Source: a virus (taxonomy: Duplodnaviria; Heunggongvirae; Uroviricota; Caudoviricetes). Taken from it: 9,039 nt of DNA. The notes below the pieces were generated by a model. That model saw nothing but the letters and a program-made list of their open reading frames with translations, did not search any database and was not told the origin of the DNA. The position numbers and the translations under genes were made by a program. The first letter of the stretch is position 1; each line of letters opens with the position of its first letter. The stretch lies in the IMG/VR virus record IMGVR_UViG_2645727555_000009, positions 1-9,039 of that record. One strand, written 5' to 3'. Positions 1 through 9,039 of the stretch are shown in pieces.

Positions 1-38
1 CGTGCGGGTGCGTTGAGGATGCCTGACACATCAGAGGT

Positions 39-60
39 GGCGAGGGATTTCTCCCTCGCC
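39..60 (-). other. Stable hairpin just downstream of the hok stop; possible mRNA 3'-end structure
   Basis: Perfect 9-bp stem GGCGAGGGA / TCCCTCGCC with a 4-nt loop, 7 nt beyond the hok stop on the transcribed strand. No U-run follows on either strand, so it is not a canonical intrinsic terminator. Confidence 0.3.
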
Positions 61-67
61 GGGTCTC

Positions 68-223
68 TTACTCCTCAGGTTCGTAAACTGTGAAGACAGC
101 GACCTCCGTCTGGCCGGTTCGGATTCGTACCTCGCAGAGGTCTTTCCTCGTTACCAGTGCCGTCACTATGACGGTTAAACAGATGACGATCAGGGCGATT
201 AACATCGCCTTTTGCTGCTTCAT
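68..223 (-). CDS. hokD: Hok/Gef family type I membrane toxin (HokD/RelF-like), 51 aa
   Basis: Translation from the internal ATG at 223 gives MKQQKAMLIALIVICLTVIVTALVTRKDLCEVRIRTGQTEVAVFTVYEPEE: a hydrophobic transmembrane helix followed by the conserved Hok periplasmic motif (RKxLCEVRIRTGQTEVA). It matches my recollection of E. coli HokD/RelF closely. AAGGAG lies 7 nt upstream of this ATG. The provided 70-aa ORF (68..280) is an in-frame upstream extension that may be a mok-like leader frame. Paralogue assignment is from memory, not a search. Confidence 0.85.
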   Translation of the reverse strand: MKQQKAMLIALIVICLTVIVTALVTRKDLCEVRIRTGQTEVAVFTVYEPEE

Positions 224-514
224 AGCCTGCTTCTCCTTGCCTTTCGGCACGTAAGAGGCTAACCTAGATTTGCCGTTCATAGATTGAGCCTCAGATTAAT
301 GTTAAGCGTCTTGCAGGACGCGTAATGTTAACTGGGGCTTTTCTCTATCTGCCTTTTGGTATTCATGCCTGAGACAGATAGCCTCAAGCACCCGCAGCAA
401 TTCTACTTAACTATCCTTTCCCCGCAAATCGTTTTTATCCCCAGCGACAAATCGAATACACCACCAGCGCCACCGCCATTGCGATCCCTACCGTTGTGAA
501 TGCCTCAGGCCAGG

Positions 515-859
515 TCATCGTAAAACATCCTCTGCGCTTATCAGTCCGTTTCGCTTCAGGTAGTCCATCGCCTTACCCGGCAATTTACAGTCCGGCTTCG
601 TTTTCCTCAGTTGCCAGGTTAACTGCTTTACCAGCATGGTTAACTCGTCGACCAGACGCTGATGTCCCACTGGTTTGTATTCATGCAATTTACCGGCTGG
701 CTCTGCTGCCAGCGATGCCAGTGCGATTTCCAGAACAGCAATATCCATCTTATATGTGCGGATGATGTCATGGTCGATTGTGCCCGGTATGCACAGTCTC
801 TGTGCTTCAATAGTCTCCTCTGCGTGAGCTATTAACTGCTCTCTGGTAAAAGTGGTCAT
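515..859 (-). CDS. Hypothetical small phage protein (114 aa), N-terminal paralogue of the 1373..1798 product
   Basis: ORF with a GAAGGAAG Shine-Dalgarno inside the upstream gene and an ATGA start/stop overlap with the 856..1371 gene. Its N-terminus ([20 protein letters not shown]...[10 protein letters not shown]) parallels MTELTKEQLIEEAKLKIAIAK...IALTSLEAEP of the 1373..1798 product, and the DNA around 690..730 resembles 1670..1710. Confidence 0.6.
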
Positions 860-1371
860 GCCGCGCTTCCTTCTTGCTTATTAACGATTACACCGTCATA
901 TATTTCATTAAGGTGTCCCCTCAACTCCATGCGCCTTAATGCAGACAACATGTAATCGCATTCAACCTGCTTATTTCCAGTAAATGGCTTATCGTCAGGA
1001 TCACCCCAACAGCAATTACCCTTGGGCCACCCATGTACTTTCCGTACTCTTCCGTTAACAACGTGAAGTAATCCCCAGCCAGGTGGTAAATCCTCAATTG
1101 AAATAATTCCCGGCTCACTAATAAAGAATCTCCAGTCGCCCATGCCAAGAGAGGGATTTTTACGGAAACGCTTTTTTCTATCTGCCAACAAGTCAGCACG
1201 AGAACACTTCGCCTCTATCAGGCATGATGCTGAATTTCTGAATCCCATAGCATCTGGTTGTTCTCCAGTACTGGTTACAGCAACAAAGCGGTCATGAAAG
1301 CAAACCTTGAACCCGTTGCGCTTAAGGAACCTGTACGCAATCTGACAGAGTTCGCGGTGTGTTAACGCCAT
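856..1371 (-). CDS. Putative PD-(D/E)xK nuclease-fold protein (Hjc / VRR-NUC-like N-terminal domain) with a Cys-rich C-terminal region, 171 aa
   Basis: The N-terminus has the layout helix ([19 protein letters not shown]), then GEQPD, then CLIEAK 11 residues after the PD, i.e. a PD...ExK motif as in Hjc/VRR-NUC resolvase-type nucleases. The C-terminal part carries several Cys (NCCWGD, ECD). Start is coupled to the upstream gene (GGAGAATGAGATG). Fold assignment is by motif recognition only. Confidence 0.5.
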
Positions 1372-1372
1372 C

Positions 1373-1798
1373 TCATTCTCCTTTGATGCGAATGTTTACA
1401 ACCTGACAAACCTCTTTGAGTACCCAGTCAACAGCGTCTTTCCACGCTCCAGTCTCAACTGGCGGATTCTCACGTTTTACTTGTTCATAGAAGTGCACAG
1501 CTTTAACCAGTCCTTCAGGTACTACAGGCACTGGCGGCATGCGATACAATGGAGTAACACAACGCGAAGCCTCATATTTATCTGACGGACGCTGAAATAT
1601 CTCACCGAACCCATATTTTTCAATATCTCGCAGTTCCTCGTCGTCAGTCCATGCCACCGGTTCTGCTTCCAGCGATGTCAGTGCAATTTTGAGTAACTCA
1701 CCCTCTACTCGTGCCACGCCTGAATTGGGATGGCATTTCGCAATCGCTATTTTTAATTTGGCTTCTTCGATTAATTGCTCTTTTGTTAATTCAGTCAT
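1373..1798 (-). CDS. Hypothetical small phage protein (141 aa), modular: N-terminus paralogous to the 515..859 product, C-terminus (…IRIKGE) shared with the 2228..2689 product
   Basis: ORF whose stop lies 1 nt before the next start. Shares an N-terminal ~50-aa module with the 114-aa protein and a C-terminal GxW…IRIKGE tail with the 153-aa protein. Confidence 0.55.
   Translation of the reverse strand: MTELTKEQLIEEAKLKIAIAKCHPNSGVARVEGELLKIALTSLEAEPVAWTDDEELRDIEKYGFGEIFQRPSDKYEASRCVTPLYRMPPVPVVPEGLVKAVHFYEQVKRENPPVETGAWKDAVDWVLKEVCQVVNIRIKGE
1377..1394. repeat. 18-bp exact direct repeat TCTCCTTTGATGCGAATG, copy 1, at the 141-aa/171-aa gene junction
   Basis: Identical 18-mer to 2256..2273. On the coding (minus) strand it reads CATTCGCATCAAAGGAGA, encoding the C-terminal RIKGE and supplying the AAGGAG ribosome-binding site for the next gene. 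Confidence 0.9.
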
Positions 1799-1893
1799 TT
1801 TTCATTACCGCTCTTTCTGGCGGCCTCCTGATGTTCTGAGGGTGCAGAAATCCCTCCGGCTAAGGATTAAATTTTTAACAGTTCTAAATTTAA

Positions 1894-2250
1894 CTATTCA
1901 GTTCTGGATTTTGTCGCCCTGCGTATCCGCGCTTTCGCGTTACGCTCAATCTGAATTAGCTTTTCTATATTTTTCCGTCTTTCCCGTTCCTCCTGACGCA
2001 ATAGCCTTACATCATCTGCCAGTCTGGTTTCTCTTTTCGCCACAGAGAGCATCCAGTCAAATGGCTCCACAACTGCGCCGCAGATTTTACAGCGGACCTG
2101 ACGCTCTTTTTCATCAACCCGGACAGAGGCGTGATGGCAGTATGGTCTTTCCGATGGCTCATAAAGAAAATTAACCTGATTACGCGGGTCATCCTCTTTT
2201 ACAGGAAATAAAACGATATTGCTTAACTCATCCTCTGGTTTTATTTCCAT
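1894..2250 (-). CDS. Hypothetical zinc-ribbon protein with a basic coiled-coil C-terminus (118 aa)
   Basis: Strong Shine-Dalgarno AGGAGAGGAG before the ATG at 2250. Contains CHH…(x16)…CKIC, a likely Zn-binding motif, and an Arg/Lys/Glu-rich C-terminal helix. No family recognised. Confidence 0.55.
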   Translation of the reverse strand: MEIKPEDELSNIVLFPVKEDDPRNQVNFLYEPSERPYCHHASVRVDEKERQVRCKICGAVVEPFDWMLSVAKRETRLADDVRLLRQEERERRKNIEKLIQIERNAKARIRRATKSRTE

Positions 2251-2689
2251 GCTCCTCTCCTTTGATGCGAATGCCAGCGACGCGTAATGCGTGTTCTAGG
2301 TCAATCAGGTAAAGCCAACTGCCATTTTCTTTAGGTATCATGACATGTCGCTCATCTGCATTTATCGGGTGTCCATATCGAAGGTCGTAGCGAGTCGGTA
2401 ATTGAACTTCCCGCGCTTCCAGTGCAGCAATACGCTTGCTCCCATCAGAGATAACGCCTTCGTAATACTCACGCTGCTCGTTGAGTTGTGATTTTGCTTC
2501 TTCCAGTCCATCCAGCAAATCAGCGATAATATCCGCTTCCCGATGACGGATGTGACGCTTAAACGCAGCAAGAGCCGCATCACAATCCCGTTCAGCATTT
2601 GGGCTGTCCGGGATAGCCTGATACCACGCCAGCGTCGACTGATAGTTTTGTGCTGCCTCACGAAGCGCCTCATAGTTAACCTCTCTCAT
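2228..2689 (-). CDS. Hypothetical phage protein (153 aa) sharing the IRIKGE C-terminal module
   Basis: GAGGTGG Shine-Dalgarno and ATG at 2689, with an ATGA overlap onto the upstream gene's stop. Its 3' end overlaps the next gene's start by 23 nt. Confidence 0.55.
   Translation of the reverse strand: MREVNYEALREAAQNYQSTLAWYQAIPDSPNAERDCDAALAAFKRHIRHREADIIADLLDGLEEAKSQLNEQREYYEGVISDGSKRIAALEAREVQLPTRYDLRYGHPINADERHVMIPKENGSWLYLIDLEHALRVAGIRIKGEEHGNKTRG
2256..2273. repeat. 18-bp exact direct repeat TCTCCTTTGATGCGAATG, copy 2, at the 153-aa/118-aa gene junction
   Basis: Exact match to 1377..1394; flanking DNA is not conserved. Confidence 0.9.
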
Positions 2690-2982
2690 TGAGCCACCTC
2701 CTGATAAATCACCGCATGCCCCAGTTTCTCCGCCAGTGCCAGCTCTGCCTTAGCGCCCGCTGACCGCTGCCAGCCATTCAGCATGTAAATCGCATCCACA
2801 CAACGAATCATTGCCATGCAAATATCCATGTAGTGCGGCTGTGTCAGCCCGTCCGGAAGTACTGCCGGGTTTAAGACGGTATGCCCTTCCCGTTTCAGTT
2901 CCTCTTCCGCCTTGTGAAACGCCTCACGGTTGAAATTTTCATATCCCGTCATTGGACCGGCAATATAAACTCTCACCCTCAC
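2686..2982 (-). CDS. DUF4406-like protein (nucleoside 2-deoxyribosyltransferase-like fold), about 98 aa
   Basis: Proposed GTG start at 2982, with AGGAGG 8 nt upstream and overlapping the upstream stop. The N-terminal motif VRVYIAGPMTGYENFN…VLNP is what I recall for DUF4406/NDT-like proteins. The provided ORF (to 3051) is probably over-extended at the 5' end. Confidence 0.55.
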   Translation of the reverse strand: MRVRVYIAGPMTGYENFNREAFHKAEEELKREGHTVLNPAVLPDGLTQPHYMDICMAMIRCVDAIYMLNGWQRSAGAKAELALAEKLGHAVIYQEVAQ

Positions 2983-3371
2983 TCCATCACCTCCTGAAAG
3001 TTTCCCCGATAGAACGCCAGCACACGCTGCATAACCTCGCTCTGGCGGCACTCACGACAAATTATGTTCTGCCATCTGTTGTAACGACGTATTTCTCCGT
3101 CAGGTAACTTTCGAATCAGTGTCGGGTCAGCAGCCTTCTCCGGTGTCTTACGCCATACGCGATACGCCTGCTCTGATGGAAATACCCCGCAATCAGAGAG
3201 CCAGACATCACCACAGGCCGCAAGCGCACCAGATAAACGACGAATAGCGGTCTTACTGACACCCGTTTTATCTGCCAGTTGTCGAAAAGTTTCTCGTCCG
3301 CTCAGGCGCACGAATTCCACAATGCGCGCCTTCACTTCTTCCCGCTCTTCCTGTGTAAATACTCTTGCCAT
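2979..3371 (-). CDS. Hypothetical helix-turn-helix protein (about 130 aa)
   Basis: ATG at 3371 preceded by GGAGGT; the longer ORF to 3386 begins with TTG and is less likely. HTH-like segment RETFRQLADKTGVSKTAIRRLSGAL, plus a CxxC near the C-terminus (ICRECRQ). Confidence 0.55.
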   Translation of the reverse strand: MARVFTQEEREEVKARIVEFVRLSGRETFRQLADKTGVSKTAIRRLSGALAACGDVWLSDCGVFPSEQAYRVWRKTPEKAADPTLIRKLPDGEIRRYNRWQNIICRECRQSEVMQRVLAFYRGNFQEVME

Positions 3372-3386
3372 AAGTACCTCCGGCAA

Positions 3387-4157
3387 TCACTTTTCCGACA
3401 CAATACGACTGGAGGAATCGACAATCTGTCGAACAATATCCTGGTGCTTGTTCAGCTCACGCAGCGCAGCACAGACTCGCTCCCACTTCTGAACCTGACC
3501 TTTTGCCCGGCGCAGTTCGCGGTTAGCCACATGCAGCGATGGTAAAATCAGACTATCCGGATGCTTTCTGGTGAACGACGGCTGTGACTGCACTGTGACC
3601 GCCACACTTTCAGTTTTAATTTCTTCCTGTGTTTCCGCTTCCCGGACTGGTAACGCAACACCTGCTGGCTGAGGAAAGGCTTTACCATCGGTTTCCGTTA
3701 CCGATGCAGCTTCCGGCTCTGCCGGTAAATCAGCGCCCGGTATGCAGTAACGAAATTTACCGTTCTGATTTACGCGTGCCAGGCGCCCCGTTGCTGTTAC
3801 GACCGCCAACGTGGAAGCAACCTTGCGAATGCTAACACCGAACTTATCCGCCACTTCCTCACACGTTTTAGCCCCATCCTGACAGATAAACTCAATCATC
3901 ATGTCCGCGGTAACTTTTTGTTCGACCTCCCCGGTCAGCACATCCGGTACTTCAGACTGTGCTGGCTGCTCTTCGGTTACCCCGGATTCACCTTCACCAG
4001 CCAGAAACCAGGTGTGACCCGTTTTATCAACAACGCCATTTTTTTTGAGTTCCCACAGTTCGTTGAGAACTTCTTCACGGCTGATATCAAGCCGCGCCGC
4101 CAGTTCAACAGAATTGGCTTTACCCATCGCTTTCAGTGCATGCAATACGGTTTCCAT
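3387..4157 (-). CDS. Hypothetical phage protein with two winged-helix-like modules separated by acidic linkers (256 aa)
   Basis: GGAGGAAG Shine-Dalgarno before the ATG at 4157. Residues 1-45 ([37 protein letters not shown]) and about 85-135 ([33 protein letters not shown]) both resemble wHTH DNA-binding modules, separated by E/Q/T-rich low-complexity linkers. Confidence 0.6.
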
Positions 4158-4186
4158 TAAAACTTCCTCCGGATAAAAATTACTTC

Positions 4187-4927
4187 TCAGTTCCTGTGCT
4201 GGCTGACGTTCGGACGCCAGCTCTCCCAGTTAAACGTCACCCAGCGACCACCGTTCATGACCATGCGGTCCATCACACGCTCGCCAAGAAGCGTACTCAT
4301 CGCTACGTGGTTCAGGTTCGTCAGCATTCCGACACTACGCATCGAAGCCGTTCTGCGGTCGACTATCTGGTTCAGTGTGACCTGCTCGTTGCGCGTATCC
4401 CGCTGCATTCCGATTTCATCCAGGACAAGCAGGTCAACATCACACAACCCCTGTAAAAATTTTTCGCCTGAGTTTTTGTTGTCGTAGCTGTTGTGTAACG
4501 CCAGCATCACATCAGCCACCGTTATCACAATCACGCTGCGACCTTTCGCCAGAAGATGATTGCCAATGGCGGCTGCAAGGTGGTTCTTTCCGGTACCCGG
4601 CTTACCGCTGAACACAAAATTCGTGCACCCTGTCATCAGTTCGTCAGCGATGGATTTTGCCTGGCTCAGCGCATGTTTTTGCCCGTCGTTCTGCACCTGA
4701 TAATTCGCAAACGAGCATTTGCTGTGCAGAGGCTGGATGCCCGAACGATTCAGGATTTTTTCCACCCGCAACTGGCGATTCTGGCGGTTGATCTCCTCGC
4801 TACGTTTTCGCCCTTCTGCCAGTTGCCACTCGCGCCACTCGTCCACTGTCCGGTACGGCGCGATTACATGCTGCGGGGTCAGCTTACGGATACGCTCAAG
4901 AACACCACCTGTCGCGATATTTTTCAT
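4187..4927 (-). CDS. DnaC-like AAA+ helicase loader (phage P-protein functional analogue; YdaV/IstB-like ATPase)
   Basis: Walker [16 protein letters not shown] and Walker [10 protein letters not shown], 246 aa, AGGGGGTAA Shine-Dalgarno, lying immediately downstream of the initiator gene. Confidence 0.85.
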
Positions 4928-4933
4928 GGCCCG

Positions 4934-5899
4934 TTACCCCCTGAACCCCGGCGGAATTTCGGTATCCGGCTCAGAAATATGATTCACGCAACGCTGTACA
5001 GACGAACGCCCCAGGCGGATAACCAGTTCATCCCATTTTTCGCGAAGCTTTGACGGACTCATGATATTTTTTACCCAGAATGGATCCCGCTGCGCCCGAC
5101 CAAACATTTCACAAATTTGTCTGTGAGTTCTGCCATCCAGCATCCGCATTGTGCGCACGTCGTTGGCCCATGCGGTCCAGTTGGGTTCTTTCGGTCGCGA
5201 AATCTCGCCATCATCGCTGGCGGCCTGCTCGTAAAGACTCACGATTCGTCCCCAGATCCACTGCGCACACGCCAAATCTTCCTGGTTGCCCCACTGGCGT
5301 TTTTTTGCACTGAACACAACCGCGTCAGGGTGTCGGGTTAAAAAATCCTGTTCAACCGTCTGCGGGTCCGGTTGCGAAGCTTCCGGACGAGAAGTGTTTT
5401 TATTCTCTGTAGTAATCTCTGTTGTATTCTCTGTAAGATCATCAGGCCATTTTGACCCGATGACATTGAGTCGTTTTGAACCAATGGAACGTGCCATTTT
5501 GGCCCCTTCCATCGTGTCATTCTGACCTGATGGAGCAGCGCATTTTGACCTGATGGATTCGCTCACTTTGCCACCATTTAAAAGCTCGCTCTCGTAATTA
5601 ATCGTGTAAAAATTAGTCATATCACGCTTTGATTTATTGAGCTTTTCGCAACGCAAAAGCCCCAGCGTTTTCAGACTTGCAAATGCGCGTTTTAACGTTG
5701 ACTCTGACCAGAACGGGAACTGCTCCAGCCATTGTTCTGTTGTGTTATAAATCCAGCGAACACCATCACATTCCATGCCGGAACCGGTATCTCTCAACCA
5801 GTAATGCAACTGCTGCAACACGATGGCTTCGTTCAGACCAATTTTCATCGCCAGCTGCGTGTTTATAACCAGCGGACGTTCAGCAAAAAGGAGCTTCAT
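4934..5899 (-). CDS. Phage replication initiation protein (lambda O-like / YdaU-like), with the origin iterons inside the coding sequence
   Basis: Long ORF upstream of the DnaC-like gene. ATG at 5899 (MKLLFAERP…); the provided ORF extends to a TTG at 5923 that overlaps the ydaT stop. Five iterons lie inside the coding sequence, encoding the repeated IGSK peptide. The C-terminus is the type typically fused to helicase-loader-recruiting initiators. Confidence 0.75.
   Translation of the reverse strand: MKLLFAERPLVINTQLAMKIGLNEAIVLQQLHYWLRDTGSGMECDGVRWIYNTTEQWLEQFPFWSESTLKRAFASLKTLGLLRCEKLNKSKRDMTNFYTINYESELLNGGKVSESIRSKCAAPSGQNDTMEGAKMARSIGSKRLNVIGSKWPDDLTENTTEITTENKNTSRPEASQPDPQTVEQDFLTRHPDAVVFSAKKRQWGNQEDLACAQWIWGRIVSLYEQAASDDGEISRPKEPNWTAWANDVRTMRMLDGRTHRQICEMFGRAQRDPFWVKNIMSPSKLREKWDELVIRLGRSSVQRCVNHISEPDTEIPPGFRG
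5448..5558. repeat. Putative phage replication origin: five iterons (consensus CATTTTGACCTGATGGA) with about 23-bp periodicity, followed by a moderately AT-rich segment (5560..5640)
   Basis: Iteron starts at 5448, 5472, 5495, 5518 and 5541 (spacing 24/23/23/23). The two best copies are CATTCTGACCTGATGGA (5518..5534) and CATTTTGACCTGATGGA (5541..5557). The layout matches a lambda-type origin embedded in the O gene. Confidence 0.7.
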
Positions 5900-5908
5900 C
5901 CCCCCCCC
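5900..5908. repeat. Homopolymeric tract (C9 on plus, G9 on the coding strand) directly abutting the initiator ATG
   Basis: Nine consecutive C at 5900..5908. On the minus strand this is GGGGGGGGG immediately 5' of the ATG at 5899, or inside the coding sequence if the TTG at 5923 is the start. Confidence 0.9.
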
Positions 5909-5919
5909 AGAACACGTTA

Positions 5920-6345
5920 TCAATGCGCCACCACGGCATTTCCCGCCGGACCACCACGATTCATCTGATCGAACAACACGATCGCTGCCGCAACAAACTC
6001 ATCGATATCTTTCACCAGGCGCTCCCGTCGCTCGACAAGCTCCCGGTGATATTCCGAACTGTGGCTGCGCATTCGGGCCACCAGTGGAGGCGGCATTGCT
6101 TTTTCGATCGCCGGTAACAACGCCTGAATTTTTTTAACCGCATCAGGGGTGTCTTTTTCTACCCAGCGGAAAATTTTCTGGGTATTACGAGACAGGGCTT
6201 CCGGATGGCTGTCGTCATACAGTTCAGGAAACGTCATACCCAACTCAAAATAAGCCTGGGTTATTCCAGCTACTGGAACTTTTTCGCCATCAGGACGCGC
6301 CCAGGCATTCATTGCCATGCGGATGTGTTCATGCTTGATTTTCAT
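5920..6345 (-). CDS. ydaT: YdaT-like protein (proposed cII functional analogue of Rac/CP-933P-type prophages), 141 aa
   Basis: Sits second in the rightward operon, directly after the Cro-like gene and before the replication genes. Its size and N-terminus (MKIKHEHIRMAMNAW…) fit my recollection of the YdaT family. Family assignment is from memory. Confidence 0.55.
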   Translation of the reverse strand: MKIKHEHIRMAMNAWARPDGEKVPVAGITQAYFELGMTFPELYDDSHPEALSRNTQKIFRWVEKDTPDAVKKIQALLPAIEKAMPPPLVARMRSHSSEYHRELVERRERLVKDIDEFVAAAIVLFDQMNRGGPAGNAVVAH

Positions 6346-6604
6346 GAATCACCCCCGCCTCTGGTTGTGTGTTAGCCTGATACTCGACAGGTAAGCCGTC
6401 GGTTGGGTTGGGATAAGTACTGCCATCAATCTCGTGCGGAGTTACTATCCAGCCTGTTGCTTCGCACCAGCGTAAAATTTTTTTCCCCGTAAGTTTCGCC
6501 CGTCCGGTAATGACATGGCTTACCATCCCTTGGGTTACCCCAACAATTTCAGCAAAATGCTTCTGAGTTATACCGGAATGATGCAAATATTCTCCAAGAT
6601 TCAT
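6329..6604 (-). CDS. ydaS: Cro-like HTH regulator (YdaS/DicC-type), 91 aa
   Basis: First gene of the rightward operon, divergent from the repressor gene. HTH segment ITQKHFAEIVGVTQGMVSHV; GAGGTGA Shine-Dalgarno 5 nt before the ATG at 6604. Confidence 0.65.
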   Translation of the reverse strand: MNLGEYLHHSGITQKHFAEIVGVTQGMVSHVITGRAKLTGKKILRWCEATGWIVTPHEIDGSTYPNPTDGLPVEYQANTQPEAGVIHENQA

Positions 6605-6615
6605 TGTTCACCTCA

Positions 6616-6628
6616 TGTGATGTCATCA
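6616..6628. promoter_or_regulatory. 13-bp perfect palindrome GTGATG-T-CATCAC in the ydaS leader / transcription start region
   Basis: Perfect dyad symmetry about 12 bp upstream of the ydaS start codon. A candidate operator, possibly for Cro-like or YdaT autoregulation, or a leader hairpin. Confidence 0.4.
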
Positions 6629-6634
6629 CGATCA

Positions 6635-6676
6635 TTAATAGCATTGTTATTTTTAAAAGTAAATAGCATCACTATT
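6635..6676. promoter_or_regulatory. Operator pair (OR-like) in the divergent promoter region: two 17-bp sites of type AATAG-N5-CTATT, centres 25 bp apart
   Basis: Site 1 TAATAGCATTGTTATTT (6635..6651) and site 2 AAATAGCATCACTATTT (6660..6676). Both are internally palindromic and match a third copy at 7759..7775. They overlap candidate minus-strand promoter hexamers: TTGAAA / TTTAAA and TTTACT / TATTAA. Confidence 0.6.
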
Positions 6677-6711
6677 TCAAAGAGATTAATAATCTTATTA
6701 GAATTGAAGGT

Positions 6712-7212
6712 ATGAAAAGAAAATCCCTGTCAGAGATCGACCTGCAAGCCGCCCAGAGACTGAAAGAAATCTGGACGGCGAAAAAAAATCAACTAGGGTT
6801 AACCCAAGAGCGTGCGGCAGAAATTCTGGGATTTTCGACACAGGGAGCTGTAAGCCATTATCTAAATGGTCAGACACCTTTAAATCTTGAGGCTGTTATC
6901 AAGTTCGCAGGGTTGCTGCAAGTTCCTCCCGAGTCAATCAGACCAGATATGGCCGAGTTGTTACAAATTGTAAGGATGTATCCCCAAGAATCTGGGGAGG
7001 ACAATGTTGTCACTATATCTGCAGATATGGAACAATCGGAAAACGAACTTCCGTTTAATATAGACCCCATGGAGCGGGATTTGCTCCAGACGTTCAGGGC
7101 TTTCCCCAAAGAAGATAAAGAGAAAATGCTTAAGGAAATGAAGGAGAAAAAAGAATCAATTGAAGAAATCGTTGCGCGATGGCTAGCTGCGCAAAAGGGT
7201 CGTCGCGCCTAA
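6712..7212 (+). CDS. paaR2: Prophage repressor at the cI position (PaaR2-like HTH_XRE regulator), 166 aa, lacking a LexA/S24 autocleavage domain
   Basis: N-terminal HTH (LGLTQERAAEILGFSTQGAVSHYLNG), divergent from the Cro-like gene. The C-terminus is E/K-rich with no Ser-Lys peptidase motif. It is followed by an antitoxin/toxin pair, as in the O157:H7 paaR2-paaA2-parE2 locus. The gene symbol is a recollection-based assignment. Confidence 0.6.
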   Translation: MKRKSLSEIDLQAAQRLKEIWTAKKNQLGLTQERAAEILGFSTQGAVSHYLNGQTPLNLEAVIKFAGLLQVPPESIRPDMAELLQIVRMYPQESGEDNVVTISADMEQSENELPFNIDPMERDLLQTFRAFPKEDKEKMLKEMKEKKESIEEIVARWLAAQKGRRA

Positions 7213-7229
7213 TCTGAGGAGGTAAAAAC

Positions 7230-7421
7230 ATGAGTACAGCCCTTTCCCCGATAATTTCTGAATTTGAAACAGTCGAACAAGAAAACAGCTATAACGAATG
7301 GTTGCGAACCAAAGTGGCAGCAAGCCTCTCAGATCCCCGTCCTGCAATTCCACATGACGAAGTAATGGCTGAAATGGAAAACCTTATTGCTCAATTAGCT
7401 GCAACGAACAGGAGTGAGTAA
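7230..7421 (+). CDS. paaA2: Small antitoxin of a ParE-type toxin-antitoxin module (PaaA2-like), 63 aa
   Basis: Strong GAGGAGG Shine-Dalgarno; 63 aa, acidic; its stop overlaps the toxin start (TAATG). Size, position and sequence (…SEFETVEQENSYNEWLR…PRPAIPHDEV…) fit my recollection of PaaA2. Confidence 0.6.
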   Translation: MSTALSPIISEFETVEQENSYNEWLRTKVAASLSDPRPAIPHDEVMAEMENLIAQLAATNRSE

Positions 7422-7711
7422 TGCTGCCCATTTTATGGCTACCTTCTGCACGTGATGATTTACGTCAGATCGTAGCCTATATTGCTAAGGAAAACCCTCC
7501 CGCTGCACGTAGACTAAAAATACGCATTGAAACATCAGTTTTGTCACTTACTGAACACCCTTATCTGTACCCACCGAGCGAAAGAGTTCCAAGTCTTCGT
7601 GAGATAGTGACTCATCCTAACTACATAATACTTTACCGAGTAACAGCATCTAACATCGAGATCGTAAATGTAGTTCACTCACGAAGACAGTATCCAAACA
7701 AAACCTGTTAA
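7421..7711 (+). CDS. parE2: ParE/RelE-superfamily toxin (ParE2-like), 96 aa
   Basis: Translationally coupled to the upstream antitoxin by a 1-nt overlap. The sequence has the ParE-family pattern (…LRQIVAYIAKENPPAARRL…YRVTASNIEIVNVVHSRR). Confidence 0.7.
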   Translation: MLPILWLPSARDDLRQIVAYIAKENPPAARRLKIRIETSVLSLTEHPYLYPPSERVPSLREIVTHPNYIILYRVTASNIEIVNVVHSRRQYPNKTC

Positions 7712-7725
7712 TCCTTCCTGTCAAC

Positions 7726-7748
7726 AACCACCTTCGGGTGGTTTTTTT
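7726..7748 (+). terminator. Rho-independent terminator after parE2
   Basis: Stem AACCACC / GGTGGTT with a TTCG loop, followed by a T7 run (7742..7748), 15 nt after the parE2 stop. Confidence 0.75.
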
Positions 7749-7758
7749 CTTGCCACGA

Positions 7759-7801
7759 TAATAGCACTACTATTTACATAATTAAATAGTAGTGGTATTG
7801 T
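7759..7801 (+). promoter_or_regulatory. Operator pair (OL-like) overlapping a candidate pL-like promoter for the ydfA-ydfB-ydfC-dicF operon
   Basis: Site 3 TAATAGCACTACTATTT (7759..7775) and site 4 AAATAGTAGTGGTATTG (7784..7800), centres 25 bp apart as in the OR pair. Candidate -35 TTTACA (7773..7778), 17-bp spacer, -10 TATTGT (7796..7801). Together the sites form a 30-bp palindrome (7765..7794). Confidence 0.55.
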
Positions 7802-7980
7802 TCATTCATCAACCCACCCCGCCCCACAGAACGCCAGGCAATACTTCGAGTTACCCGGCAGTGGTCAGGGGTTAAGTAGCCAGCCCGAGGCGTAAGAACA
7901 TGACGGCAGGGTTCAACTTTAATAACTATGCAGCAGTTTTTTGTTCCGCTACCCCGGCGTTAAGGGGAAATGAGGTCAGC

Positions 7981-8136
7981 ATGGATACTATCGATCTTGG
8001 CAACAACGAATCTCTGGTGTACGGCGTATTTCCAAACCAGGACGGCACGTTCACCGCAATGACGTATACCAAAAGCAAAACGTTTAAAACCGAAAATGGT
8101 GCCCGTCGCTGGCTGGAAAGAAACTCAGGTGAGTGA
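7981..8136 (+). CDS. ydfA: YdfA-like small protein (51 aa), first gene of a dicB-type operon
   Basis: ATG at 7981 with a GAGG Shine-Dalgarno. The 51-aa product (MDTIDLGNNESLVYGVFPNQDGTF…) matches the size and context of Qin-prophage YdfA. The longer ORF from 7900 is probably an artefactual extension. Confidence 0.65.
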   Translation: MDTIDLGNNESLVYGVFPNQDGTFTAMTYTKSKTFKTENGARRWLERNSGE

Positions 8137-8137
8137 T

Positions 8138-8266
8138 ATGGATTTCGACACAATCATGGAAAAGGCTTACGAAGAATACTTCGAAGGCCTTGCCGAAGGC
8201 GAAGAAGCTCTCAGCTTCAGTGAGTTTAAACAGGCGCTTTCCAGTTCGGCAAAATCTAACGGCTGA
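8138..8266 (+). CDS. ydfB: YdfB-like small protein (42 aa)
   Basis: ATG at 8138, 2 nt after the ydfA stop, with an AGGTGA Shine-Dalgarno. Encodes MDFDTIMEKAYEEYFEGLAEGEEALSFSEFKQALSSSAKSNG. It is not in the provided ORF track because it is too short; the size matches YdfB. Confidence 0.55.
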   Translation: MDFDTIMEKAYEEYFEGLAEGEEALSFSEFKQALSSSAKSNG

Positions 8267-8295
8267 TAAGCGAAACAGCACCGCGAGGAATCAGT

Positions 8296-8514
8296 ATGCA
8301 GAAACGAGAACCCGTCATCATCGCGCCAGACTATACCGATGATGAACTTTATGAGTGGATGCGCCAGAAAATTAATGCAGCGCAGGATCTGAAATGGGCT
8401 AATGAAGCCAGGGCTAAGCAGGCTGAAAATCTGTCCGCTCTGGAGCAGGATATCACCAGGCTGGAAAAAGCAGCGGCATTAAGCATTGCCAGAATGATTA
8501 CATACCCGCGTTAA
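8296..8514 (+). CDS. ydfC: YdfC-like protein (72 aa)
   Basis: GAGGA Shine-Dalgarno and ATG at 8296; 72 aa with a coiled-coil-like C-terminus. Position matches ydfC of the dicB operon. Confidence 0.6.
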   Translation: MQKREPVIIAPDYTDDELYEWMRQKINAAQDLKWANEARAKQAENLSALEQDITRLEKAAALSIARMITYPR

Positions 8515-8854
8515 TAGCTAACCAACGAAGCTAAGGTTGGTAATTAAGGAGTTCTCCACGGGTGAGGTGGAGTGCGTGCGCCGGACACGGGTGAGCATCC
8601 GGCACTGACAGTTTACTGAAAGGATATTTCCATGAAAAGTCAGACCATAACGCGAAAGCGCACGGCGAGGTAGCTGGTTCATAGATAACCTGTCGTTAAA
8701 TTTTCGTCGACCGTGCGCTTCCGGTTGTGGCACTCCGCGAAATGGCGCGGCGGTAAGTATGGCGGGGTTATTCCTTCCCCGTTGAGGACATCGGGTTGTC
8801 AGGTTGACCATACGCTTAAGTGACAACCCCGCTGCAACGCCCTCTGTTATCAAT

Positions 8855-8912
8855 TTTCTGGTGACGTTTGGCGGTATCAGTTTTACTCCGTGGCTGCTCT
8901 GCCGCCCTTTTT
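8855..8912 (+). ncRNA. dicF: DicF small RNA (prophage-encoded inhibitor of ftsZ translation) with its intrinsic terminator
   Basis: TTTCTGGTGACGTTTGGCGGTATCAGTTTTACTCCGTGGCTGCTCTGCCGCCCTTTTT matches my recollection of E. coli DicF with about one substitution. A GGCGG…CCGCC terminator stem is followed by a T5 run. It lies downstream of ydfC as in the Qin dicB operon. Confidence 0.8.
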
Positions 8913-9039
8913 AAAGTGAATTTTGTGATGCGGTGAATGCGGCTCAGCGCACGCGGAACAGTTAAAACCAAAAACAGTGTTATGGGTGGATTCTCTGTAT
9001 CCGGCGTTAATTGTTAACTGGTTAACGTCACCTGGAGGC

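Follow-up and report, generated by a model that had tools for sequence, protein, structure and literature searches.

The repeated junction and its genes

This analysis concerns an 18-nt sequence, TCTCCTTTGATGCGAATG, that occurs twice in an array of small accessory genes of a tailed phage, in a stretch of 9,039 nt from the IMG/VR record IMGVR_UViG_2645727555_000009 (positions 1 to 9,039; this whole stretch is called the window below). The window comes from a Rac/Qin-like lambdoid prophage of the E. coli type and covers the immunity, replication and accessory region. Its plus strand carries a helix-turn-helix (HTH) repressor gene (6712-7212), a PaaA2/ParE toxin-antitoxin pair, a DUF1391 gene and DicF. 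The minus strand carries, in this order, genes for an HTH Cro-like protein, a YdaT-family protein, an O-like protein and an IstB/DnaC-like ATPase, followed by DUF1627, DUF977 and DUF4406 genes, the Ea22-like array in which the repeat lies, and hok/sok. None of the complete E. coli genomes contains the window intact, the top match reaching 91% coverage at 96% identity, and no phage record covers 80% or more of window positions 400-3100; the region is highly mosaic.

The two exact copies of the 18-mer (called linkers below) are direct repeats on the same strand, 879 bp apart (Table 1), and no third copy exists in the window even at 3 mismatches. None of 200 dinucleotide-preserving shuffles contained two matches, which bears out the statement of a first-pass annotation of the window that two exact copies at these positions lie beyond chance. 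According to the list of open reading frames (ORFs), the minus strand encodes every gene of this part of the window, and in this coding orientation the 18-mer reads CATTCGCATCAAAGGAGA, encodes IRIKGE and contains AAGGAG. At both copies the gap between the 18-mer and the downstream ATG is 5 nt and the distance from AAGGAG to the ATG is 6 nt, in agreement with the first-pass annotation, which had assigned to each copy the ribosome-binding site (RBS) of the next gene. Copy 1 (CATTCGCATCAAAGGAGAATGAGATG on the minus strand, continuing after the 18-mer with AATGAGATG) leads from the end of the 141-aa ORF, NIRIKGE, through TGA and 1 nt to the ATG of the 171-aa ORF. In copy 2 (CATTCGCATCAAAGGAGAGGAGCATG, continuing with GGAGCATG) the 153-aa ORF has no stop at the linker and overlaps the 118-aa gene by 23 nt, so that RIKGE has an internal position in the 153-aa protein. 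The idea that each copy encodes a C-terminal RIKGE thus holds for the 141-aa protein and fails for the 153-aa protein, in which RIKGE is followed by 8 residues (EHGNKTRG).

Table 1. The two linker copies and the five genes around them (window positions)
Feature	Position	Strand	Description
Linker copy 1, core	1377..1394	-	IRIKGE of the 141-aa protein and AAGGAG RBS; full junction 1369-1394
Linker copy 2, core	2256..2273	-	GCTGG (2274-2278) before, GGAGC then ATG (2248-2250) after; conserved patch ~2248-2279
Ead/Ea22-like gene, 153 aa	2228..2689	-	coiled-coil N-terminal half of the lambda Ea22 type, C-terminal module different; GIRIKGE internal, residues 139-145
Zinc-ribbon-like gene, 118 aa, downstream class D0	1894..2250	-	phrog_1621; forms a cassette with the 95-nt spacer 1799-1893; shared block ~1806-2279
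141-aa protein gene, upstream class U4	1373..1798	-	N-terminal MTELTKEQL module, middle segment, short C-terminal module ending in NIRIKGE
171-aa gene, downstream class D1	856..1371	-	phrog_9263/631; shared block 838-1394; ATGA overlap with the next gene
114-aa gene, start MTTFTREQL	515..859	-	N-terminal module paralogous to that of the 141-aa protein

The 153-aa protein matches the Pfam family Ead_Ea22 (PF13935; E=3.5e-11, 44.2 bits against a cut-off of 27) and, judged by this profile match, is a true member of the Ead/Ea22 family; a PDB sequence search with this protein gave no significant match. The 141-aa and 114-aa proteins have no Pfam match, and an NCBIfam profile search gave no match for any of the five proteins, so that by the Pfam test these two are not Ead_Ea22 members; both match N-terminal parts of phrog_660, phrog_5117, phrog_60 and phrog_3323. 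BLASTP aligned the 141-aa and 153-aa proteins over their last 29 residues with 45% identity (E=7e-5), and after removal of the last 7 residues nothing was left of the similarity (best E=5.6). The prediction that these two proteins share the tail only is therefore correct, and the second one, of a common N-terminal module in the 141-aa and 114-aa proteins, is confirmed by 36% identity over the first 56 residues (E=3e-5). This 141-aa gene is a mosaic as well, with internal breakpoints near 1516 and 1459.

Recurrence in phages, prophages and plasmids

The first-pass annotation had also suggested a search for the 18-mer at other junctions of related phages, and the outcome was strongly positive: at least 119 viral contigs of IMG/VR contain the exact 18-mer, and the junction is found in lambda, P7, HK022 and Stx phages. 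Judged by the aligned copies, the 18-mer is the core of a junction of ~31-37 bp, with the consensus (CGCGCC)GCTGG-CATTCGCATCAAAGGAGA-GTGA(T/G)ATG, which ends lambda ea22-type accessory genes in temperate phages of E. coli, Shigella and Salmonella. A 38-nt junction consensus matches 385 phage records, including P7, HK022, BP-4795, VT2-Sakai, the EDL933 Stx phage and Salmonella phages, and occurs in 1617 of 5426 complete E. coli genomes, at no more than 5 places per genome and with 194 places on plasmids.

The end of lambda ea22 carries the exact 18-mer, and the Lambda imm21 gene annotated as ea22 ends with GCTGGCATTCGCATCAAAGGAGAGTGAGATCGG (the lambda Ea22 query matched lambda-derived records at 99.5% over all 182 residues). 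In lambda the linker has no downstream gene: the start position reads ATC, and ea8.5 begins ~190 nt later. Between ea22 and ea8.5 (locus L280, 3046-3240) the linker is followed by GTGAGATCGG, with ATC replacing the downstream ATG, and the sequence after ATC resembles the start of a 7-codon remnant ORF of other phages (downstream class D10 of the junction set described below). This spacer looks like a decayed or deleted cassette.

In the P1-like P7 the junction lies between upf88.3 (Ead/Ea22-like) and upf89.0, a homologue of the 171-aa gene. Window positions 838-1394 recur at 95.5-95.9% identity in Stx2a phages and P7; in P7 (L281, NC_050152.1 88993-89549) the 171-aa gene and the linker are 95.9% identical over 557 bp to the lambdoid prophage window. 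In an earlier survey, recent exchanges were confined to either the lambda-like or the P1-P2-Mu group, with none between the two (PMC3945230); the similarity of the window and P7 looks like an exchange between the groups.

Among the matches listed by a scan of a whole-genome collection, true junction-type matches come from Escherichia, Shigella and Shimwellia, with one further junction-type match in a short contig binned to a metagenome-assembled genome of Segatella copri; most of the listed matches belong to an unrelated locus of Microcoleus, are due to chance, or lie in short contigs that reproduce the lambda ea22 end exactly. Such short contigs (0.3-4 kb, among them L287, L296, L316, L320, L324, L329 and L335), with exact lambda ea22 flanks, are found in assemblies of unrelated species (Streptococcus equinus, Prevotella pallens, Streptomyces, Bradyrhizobium, Vibrio) and are most likely lambda DNA contamination of these assemblies. 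The Microcoleus/Oscillatoriales locus (L282, L289, L290 and ~35 more) is conserved and has different flanks (AGAGTCAA...TGGGCCGCTGGG); here the 18-mer looks like a coincidental match that became fixed in a single lineage and has nothing to do with the phage element.

Reassortment of the flanking genes

For a comparison of the flanks we collected all occurrences of the 18-mer at up to 2 mismatches with full 150-nt flanks in the fetched loci, which gave 167 distinct sequences, and defined flank classes after leaving out the bases adjoining the core. The 167 junctions fall into 17 upstream and 25 downstream classes, unrelated to each other, which were observed in 66 combinations, and in 88 quartets two upstream and two downstream classes occur in all four combinations. 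Over the 100 nt beside the core, members of one class have a median identity of 97% whether their partner is the same or different, compared with 26-29% (random) between classes; this within-class identity regardless of partner points to recent exchange. With one representative per combination, the conserved block comprises approximately CGCGCCGCTGG, the 18-mer and GTGATATG, i.e. positions ~-11 to +8 relative to the 18-mer; beyond this, conservation drops to background in both directions. Similarity between classes stops within ~0-11 nt of the 18-mer on either side, and the conserved length to its left differs among upstream classes (0, 2, 5 or 11 nt).

The tail encoded by the linker is carried by Ead_Ea22 proteins with various C-terminal modules, a DUF977 fusion, a 163-aa weakly Mom-like protein, a phrog_660-type family and several proteins without a family. 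The codons of IRIKGE are identical up to the last position in 113 of 114 distinct contexts (the last codon is GAG in 108 and GAA in 5), out of 864 possible encodings of this peptide, and among the variants of the 18-mer there are 9 types of non-synonymous and 3 of synonymous substitution and one frameshift. In 95 of the 167 junctions the downstream start follows 5 nt after the 18-mer and the upstream stop begins 4 nt before it (TGA, 1 nt, ATG); in 47, including copy 2 of the window, the upstream ORF overlaps the downstream gene by 23 nt, and the tail is internal, with 8 further residues after it. According to a nuclear magnetic resonance (NMR) study of the C-terminal domain of lambda Ea22, 64 of 81 residues are structured and an AlphaFold helix past the domain is called implausible (PMC10834534), from which we infer that the tail may be unstructured. 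Taken together, the peptide tail looks like a by-product of an element that acts at the DNA level.

Upstream class U0, found before the 118-aa gene in at least 43 loci, is a DUF977 protein fused in frame to an extension of ~25 residues, GGGTVSEISYQASITAGIRIKGE, and the window's own DUF977 gene (2979-3386) ends without that extension. In a 47-aa ORF, an MTTITKER start is followed directly by this same extension. Both look like in-frame deletion fusions upstream of the linker.

Breakpoints and single-gene cassettes

Because the first set of loci had been picked via the 18-mer itself, we sampled loci again by the downstream genes alone, using 397 IMG/VR relatives of the 171-aa gene (80 loci used) and 453 of the 118-aa gene (79 loci used). 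The exact 18-mer is immediately upstream of the 171-aa gene in 31 of the 80 loci, and several more have variants of 1 or 2 bases; it is upstream of the 118-aa gene in 77 of the 79 loci, behind at least 5 unrelated upstream sequences. Alignments (high-scoring segment pairs) of the loci chosen by the 171-aa gene end on the window at 1384 (40), 1394 (27) and 838-849 (64), those of the loci chosen by the 118-aa gene at 2279 (58), 1806 (54), 1516 (48) and 1459 (32). Judged by these ends, both the 171-aa gene (838-1394) and, together with its spacer, the 118-aa gene (1806-2279) behave as single-gene cassettes, and the linker is the upstream edge of both.

In two loci (L173 and L186) the C-terminal module of the 153-aa protein (window 2422-2255) and the 171-aa gene (window 1394-838) meet at a single linker, on which both alignments to the window overlap by ~17-19 nt. 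As read from these alignments, the two loci represent the window minus the 879 bp between the copies or, equivalently, the window has their arrangement with a cassette added that consists of two genes and one linker. This structure is the one that would be expected of recombination between the two copies.

At the other end of the 171-aa cassette, the gene that follows the 171-aa homologue begins in all 80 loci (L120-L199) with an ATGA overlap and a start M(T/I)T(I/F/L)T(K/R/D/N), and its product has from 44 to 468 residues. These genes form a hypervariable modular family (phrog_660, phrog_60, DUF551-type endings), whose conserved 5' end may be a second homology patch.

The accessory array ends with an ORF for a toxin of the hok/gef family (68-280, minus strand), with a full-length match to sok RNA at 218-393 (112 bits), and mosaic breakpoints are found around this hok/sok unit (68-393) at 262-288 and 436. 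On the plus strand, the PaaA2/ParE pair (7230-7711) is directly downstream of the repressor gene, and the DicF small RNA (8856-8907, 75 bits) is encoded farther along the same strand, an arrangement indicating, at the level of gene order, a putative Qin/dic-like early-left operon.

Translation signals and other possible functions of the linker

At both copies a Shine-Dalgarno sequence lies inside the upstream ORF, 6 nt before the downstream start, and the upstream stop is near this start (TGA-1 nt-ATG in copy 1) or the ORFs overlap (by 23 nt in copy 2). These features support the view that the right half of the patch (AAGGAG, stop, 1 nt, ATG) has the geometry of a coupling junction, and the reassorted flanks that the whole patch behaves as a recombination linker. 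The RNA sequence AAGGAG-A-GUGAU is presumably complementary to the known 3' end of E. coli 16S ribosomal RNA except for one bulged base. For the left half, GCTGGCATTCGCATC (10-15 nt), we know of no role in initiation.

Several other functions were considered. An Rfam scan of the window found only sok and DicF and nothing at the linker copies, and neither a promoter nor a terminator was found there. An RNA element at the junction was rejected, as the fold energies of both copies and of the lambda copy are no better than those of shuffled sequences (z +0.3 to +0.6). The GCTGG before the core resembles the start of a Chi site (GCTGGTGG) but on inspection does not continue as Chi. A programmed frameshift of the prfB type at GAG-TGA after the RBS was likewise discarded, since the P-site codon would offer no re-pairing.

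Alternative explanations

Coincidence, or a duplication private to one genome, has nothing in its favour as the origin of the repeat except that the window holds two copies only, and it is already refuted by the shuffles and by hundreds of independent occurrences at different junctions. A more serious alternative is that the linker is a translation signal only, i.e. a strong RBS with stop-start coupling, and that illegitimate recombination joined the genes, with selection then retaining those junctions that work (the Hendrix model), in which case the shared sequence would be a survivor of selection and not the place of the crossover. The spacing of AAGGAG 6 nt before ATG and the TGA-1 nt-ATG arrangement of most junctions agree with this explanation, as do the presence of the RBS/stop-start half even in a different tail allele (see below), the other boundaries of the region, which are mosaic without the 18-mer, and the conserved length on the left, which varies by upstream class. 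We nevertheless consider it unlikely, because the left 10-15 nt, for which no part in initiation is known, are the same in 17 unrelated upstream classes, because the 88 quartets have an identical joint, which independent illegitimate events would not reproduce, and because lambda retains the whole element although its start is ATC and no gene follows.

The shared sequence could instead reflect selection on the protein, with (A)GIRIKGE as a functional C-terminal motif (for partner binding, oligomerisation or degradation) of a protein superfamily and the DNA identity secondary to it. The tail is indeed in frame in all classes, a slightly longer ending, R-A-A-G-I-R-I-K-G-E, is common to several upstream classes, and the diverged allele, HLRTKGE, retains a similar peptide. 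Such a motif is made quite improbable by its presence on unrelated families (Ead_Ea22, DUF977, Mom-like, phrog_660 and proteins of no family), by its non-terminal position in 47 of the 167 junctions, by the choice of one encoding out of 864 in nearly all contexts, by variants that are mainly non-synonymous, and by the lack of structure that the NMR study suggests to us (PMC10834534). More improbable still is a cassette site served by a dedicated site-specific recombinase, in analogy to integron attC or the PeSL of T4-type phages. The layout is cassette-like, with single genes bracketed by linkers, such as the Mom-like 163-aa gene, which occurs both as a downstream and as an upstream partner; at the site itself there is no inverted repeat or stable structure and no promoter, terminator or Rfam match, and no recombinase gene was seen beside the arrays in the window.

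A probable boundary sequence that would double as a coupling junction

We regard it as probable that the element is a boundary sequence of the type proposed by Susskind and Botstein and by Clark et al. that doubles as a translational-coupling junction, with exchange taking place inside the patch. Like such boundary sequences it is short and conserved, has unrelated flanks on both sides, lies at a gene boundary and is found with reassorted partners across phages. Homologous recombination within the patch would proceed by annealing with phage recombinases of the Red, RecT or Erf type or with host RecA; short, diverged stretches of homology shared by lambdoid phages and prophages are known substrates of phage single-strand-annealing recombinases and of RecA (PMC3945230). 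An exchange would swap the upstream gene body or C-terminal module, together with a downstream cassette of a single gene, and would regenerate a working junction each time. The right half, as RBS and stop-start coupling signal, would allow the newly joined downstream gene to be expressed from the operon, while the left half and the (A)GIRIKGE tail would be carried along as a homology patch and not for protein function. In the window, the direct copies would bracket a unit of 879 bp (the 118-aa and 141-aa genes) that could be lost or gained by recombination between them.

Several points weigh against this explanation. About 40 of the 80 loci of the 171-aa gene carry a diverged allele (CTTGCGCACTAAAGGAGAGTGATATG, CTTGCGCACTAAAGGAGAGTGA; tail HLRTKGE) that shares only the RBS/stop-start half, and some of the conservation may thus belong to the translation signals of the downstream gene alone. 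Nearly all gene boundaries in the 3.4-kb stretch are breakpoints (e.g. 838-849, 1806, 2990, 3107), and since boundaries without the 18-mer also break, the 18-mer is not required for mosaicism in this region. With 31-37 bp, the patch would be close to the shortest length at which homologous recombination is efficient. Finally, the first attachment of the tail to unrelated upstream sequences would not be explained by homologous recombination and would need in-frame deletion or fusion events; the DUF977 fusion and the 47-aa ORF suggest that such illegitimate events took place upstream of the patch.

A broader hypothesis, which we put forward with considerable doubt, is that the ea22-type accessory region may be a standardised, recombinase-independent system of cassette exchange, in which each exchanged unit, a single gene or a C-terminal module, would have the 3' linker at one end and the conserved 5' end of the MTT(I/F)TKE(R/Q)L family at the other. 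If this were true, phages as different as those with lambda-like early-left operons, those with early-right operons like that of the window, and P1-like plasmids (P7) would trade accessory genes that are ready to be expressed, the linker would be kept by second-order selection for exchangeability, and the peptide tail would exist only through a function of the DNA.

Relation to known systems

We found no description of the element in literature searches (IRIKGE; ea22 with junction or cassette), and it may be identical with one of the boundary sequences, reportedly seven, of Clark et al. 2001 (J Mol Biol 311:657). At most junctions, no conserved boundary sequence can be found (PMC3029335). The patch of ~31-37 bp with its 66 flank combinations illustrates the linker model with unusual clarity in a natural setting and bears on the long-running debate on a homologous or illegitimate origin of phage mosaicism. 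Because lambda itself carries the linker, standard lambda genetics can test the element directly. The linker also explains the odd C-terminal tail common to unrelated small phage proteins, which matters for annotation because many of them are named Ead/Ea22-like largely by association, and it can serve as a marker by which accessory-gene cassettes are located in prophages of pathogenic E. coli.

The idea that conserved linkers are sites of module exchange goes back to the modular theory of Susskind and Botstein 1978, and short conserved boundary sequences in lambdoid early regions were proposed by Clark et al. 2001 (both as cited in PMC3029335 and PMC2839356). The present linker resembles these lambdoid sequences, as cited there, in being a short conserved patch at early-region boundaries, with many unrelated module combinations and a proposed role as a focus of homologous recombination. 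It differs in that it is located inside a coding sequence and hence adds a tail to unrelated proteins, and in that it separates cassettes of single genes rather than functional modules and is also found in the P1-like P7. In ordinary coupled junctions the RBS is likewise inside the upstream ORF, and the stop is 1 nt before the start or the ORFs overlap, but unrelated pairs have no identity beyond the RBS, whereas here 10-15 additional upstream bases are identical.

The ea22 genes of lambda and Stx phages have been described as mosaic, with a common N-terminal coiled-coil region and unrelated C-terminal domains; this is the gene family considered here, and the accessible part of that report describes neither the shared 3' junction nor the carriers other than Ea22 nor the reassortment downstream (PMC10834534). 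A similar case is that of the adjacent genes 67 and 68 of mycobacteriophage Island3, which share only the C-terminal 18 residues and ~50 bp of DNA, read as the recombination site of a gene insertion or deletion (PMC3029335). In both cases two genes share just a C-terminal end and the underlying DNA; Island3, however, represents a single event in one phage pair, while the present patch is found at 66 flank combinations in hundreds of phages and prophages. Finally, the PeSL elements of T4-type phages are short regulatory elements repeated between the small accessory genes of hyperplastic regions (PMC2839356). Like the linker, they provide homology by which single ORFs can be inserted, deleted or replaced and bring expression signals along. 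PeSL elements are intergenic, measure ~100 bp and combine a promoter with a stem-loop, whereas the element described here is ~31-37 bp long and partly coding, shows neither inverted repeat nor stem-loop nor promoter at either copy, and brings along only an RBS/stop-start signal.

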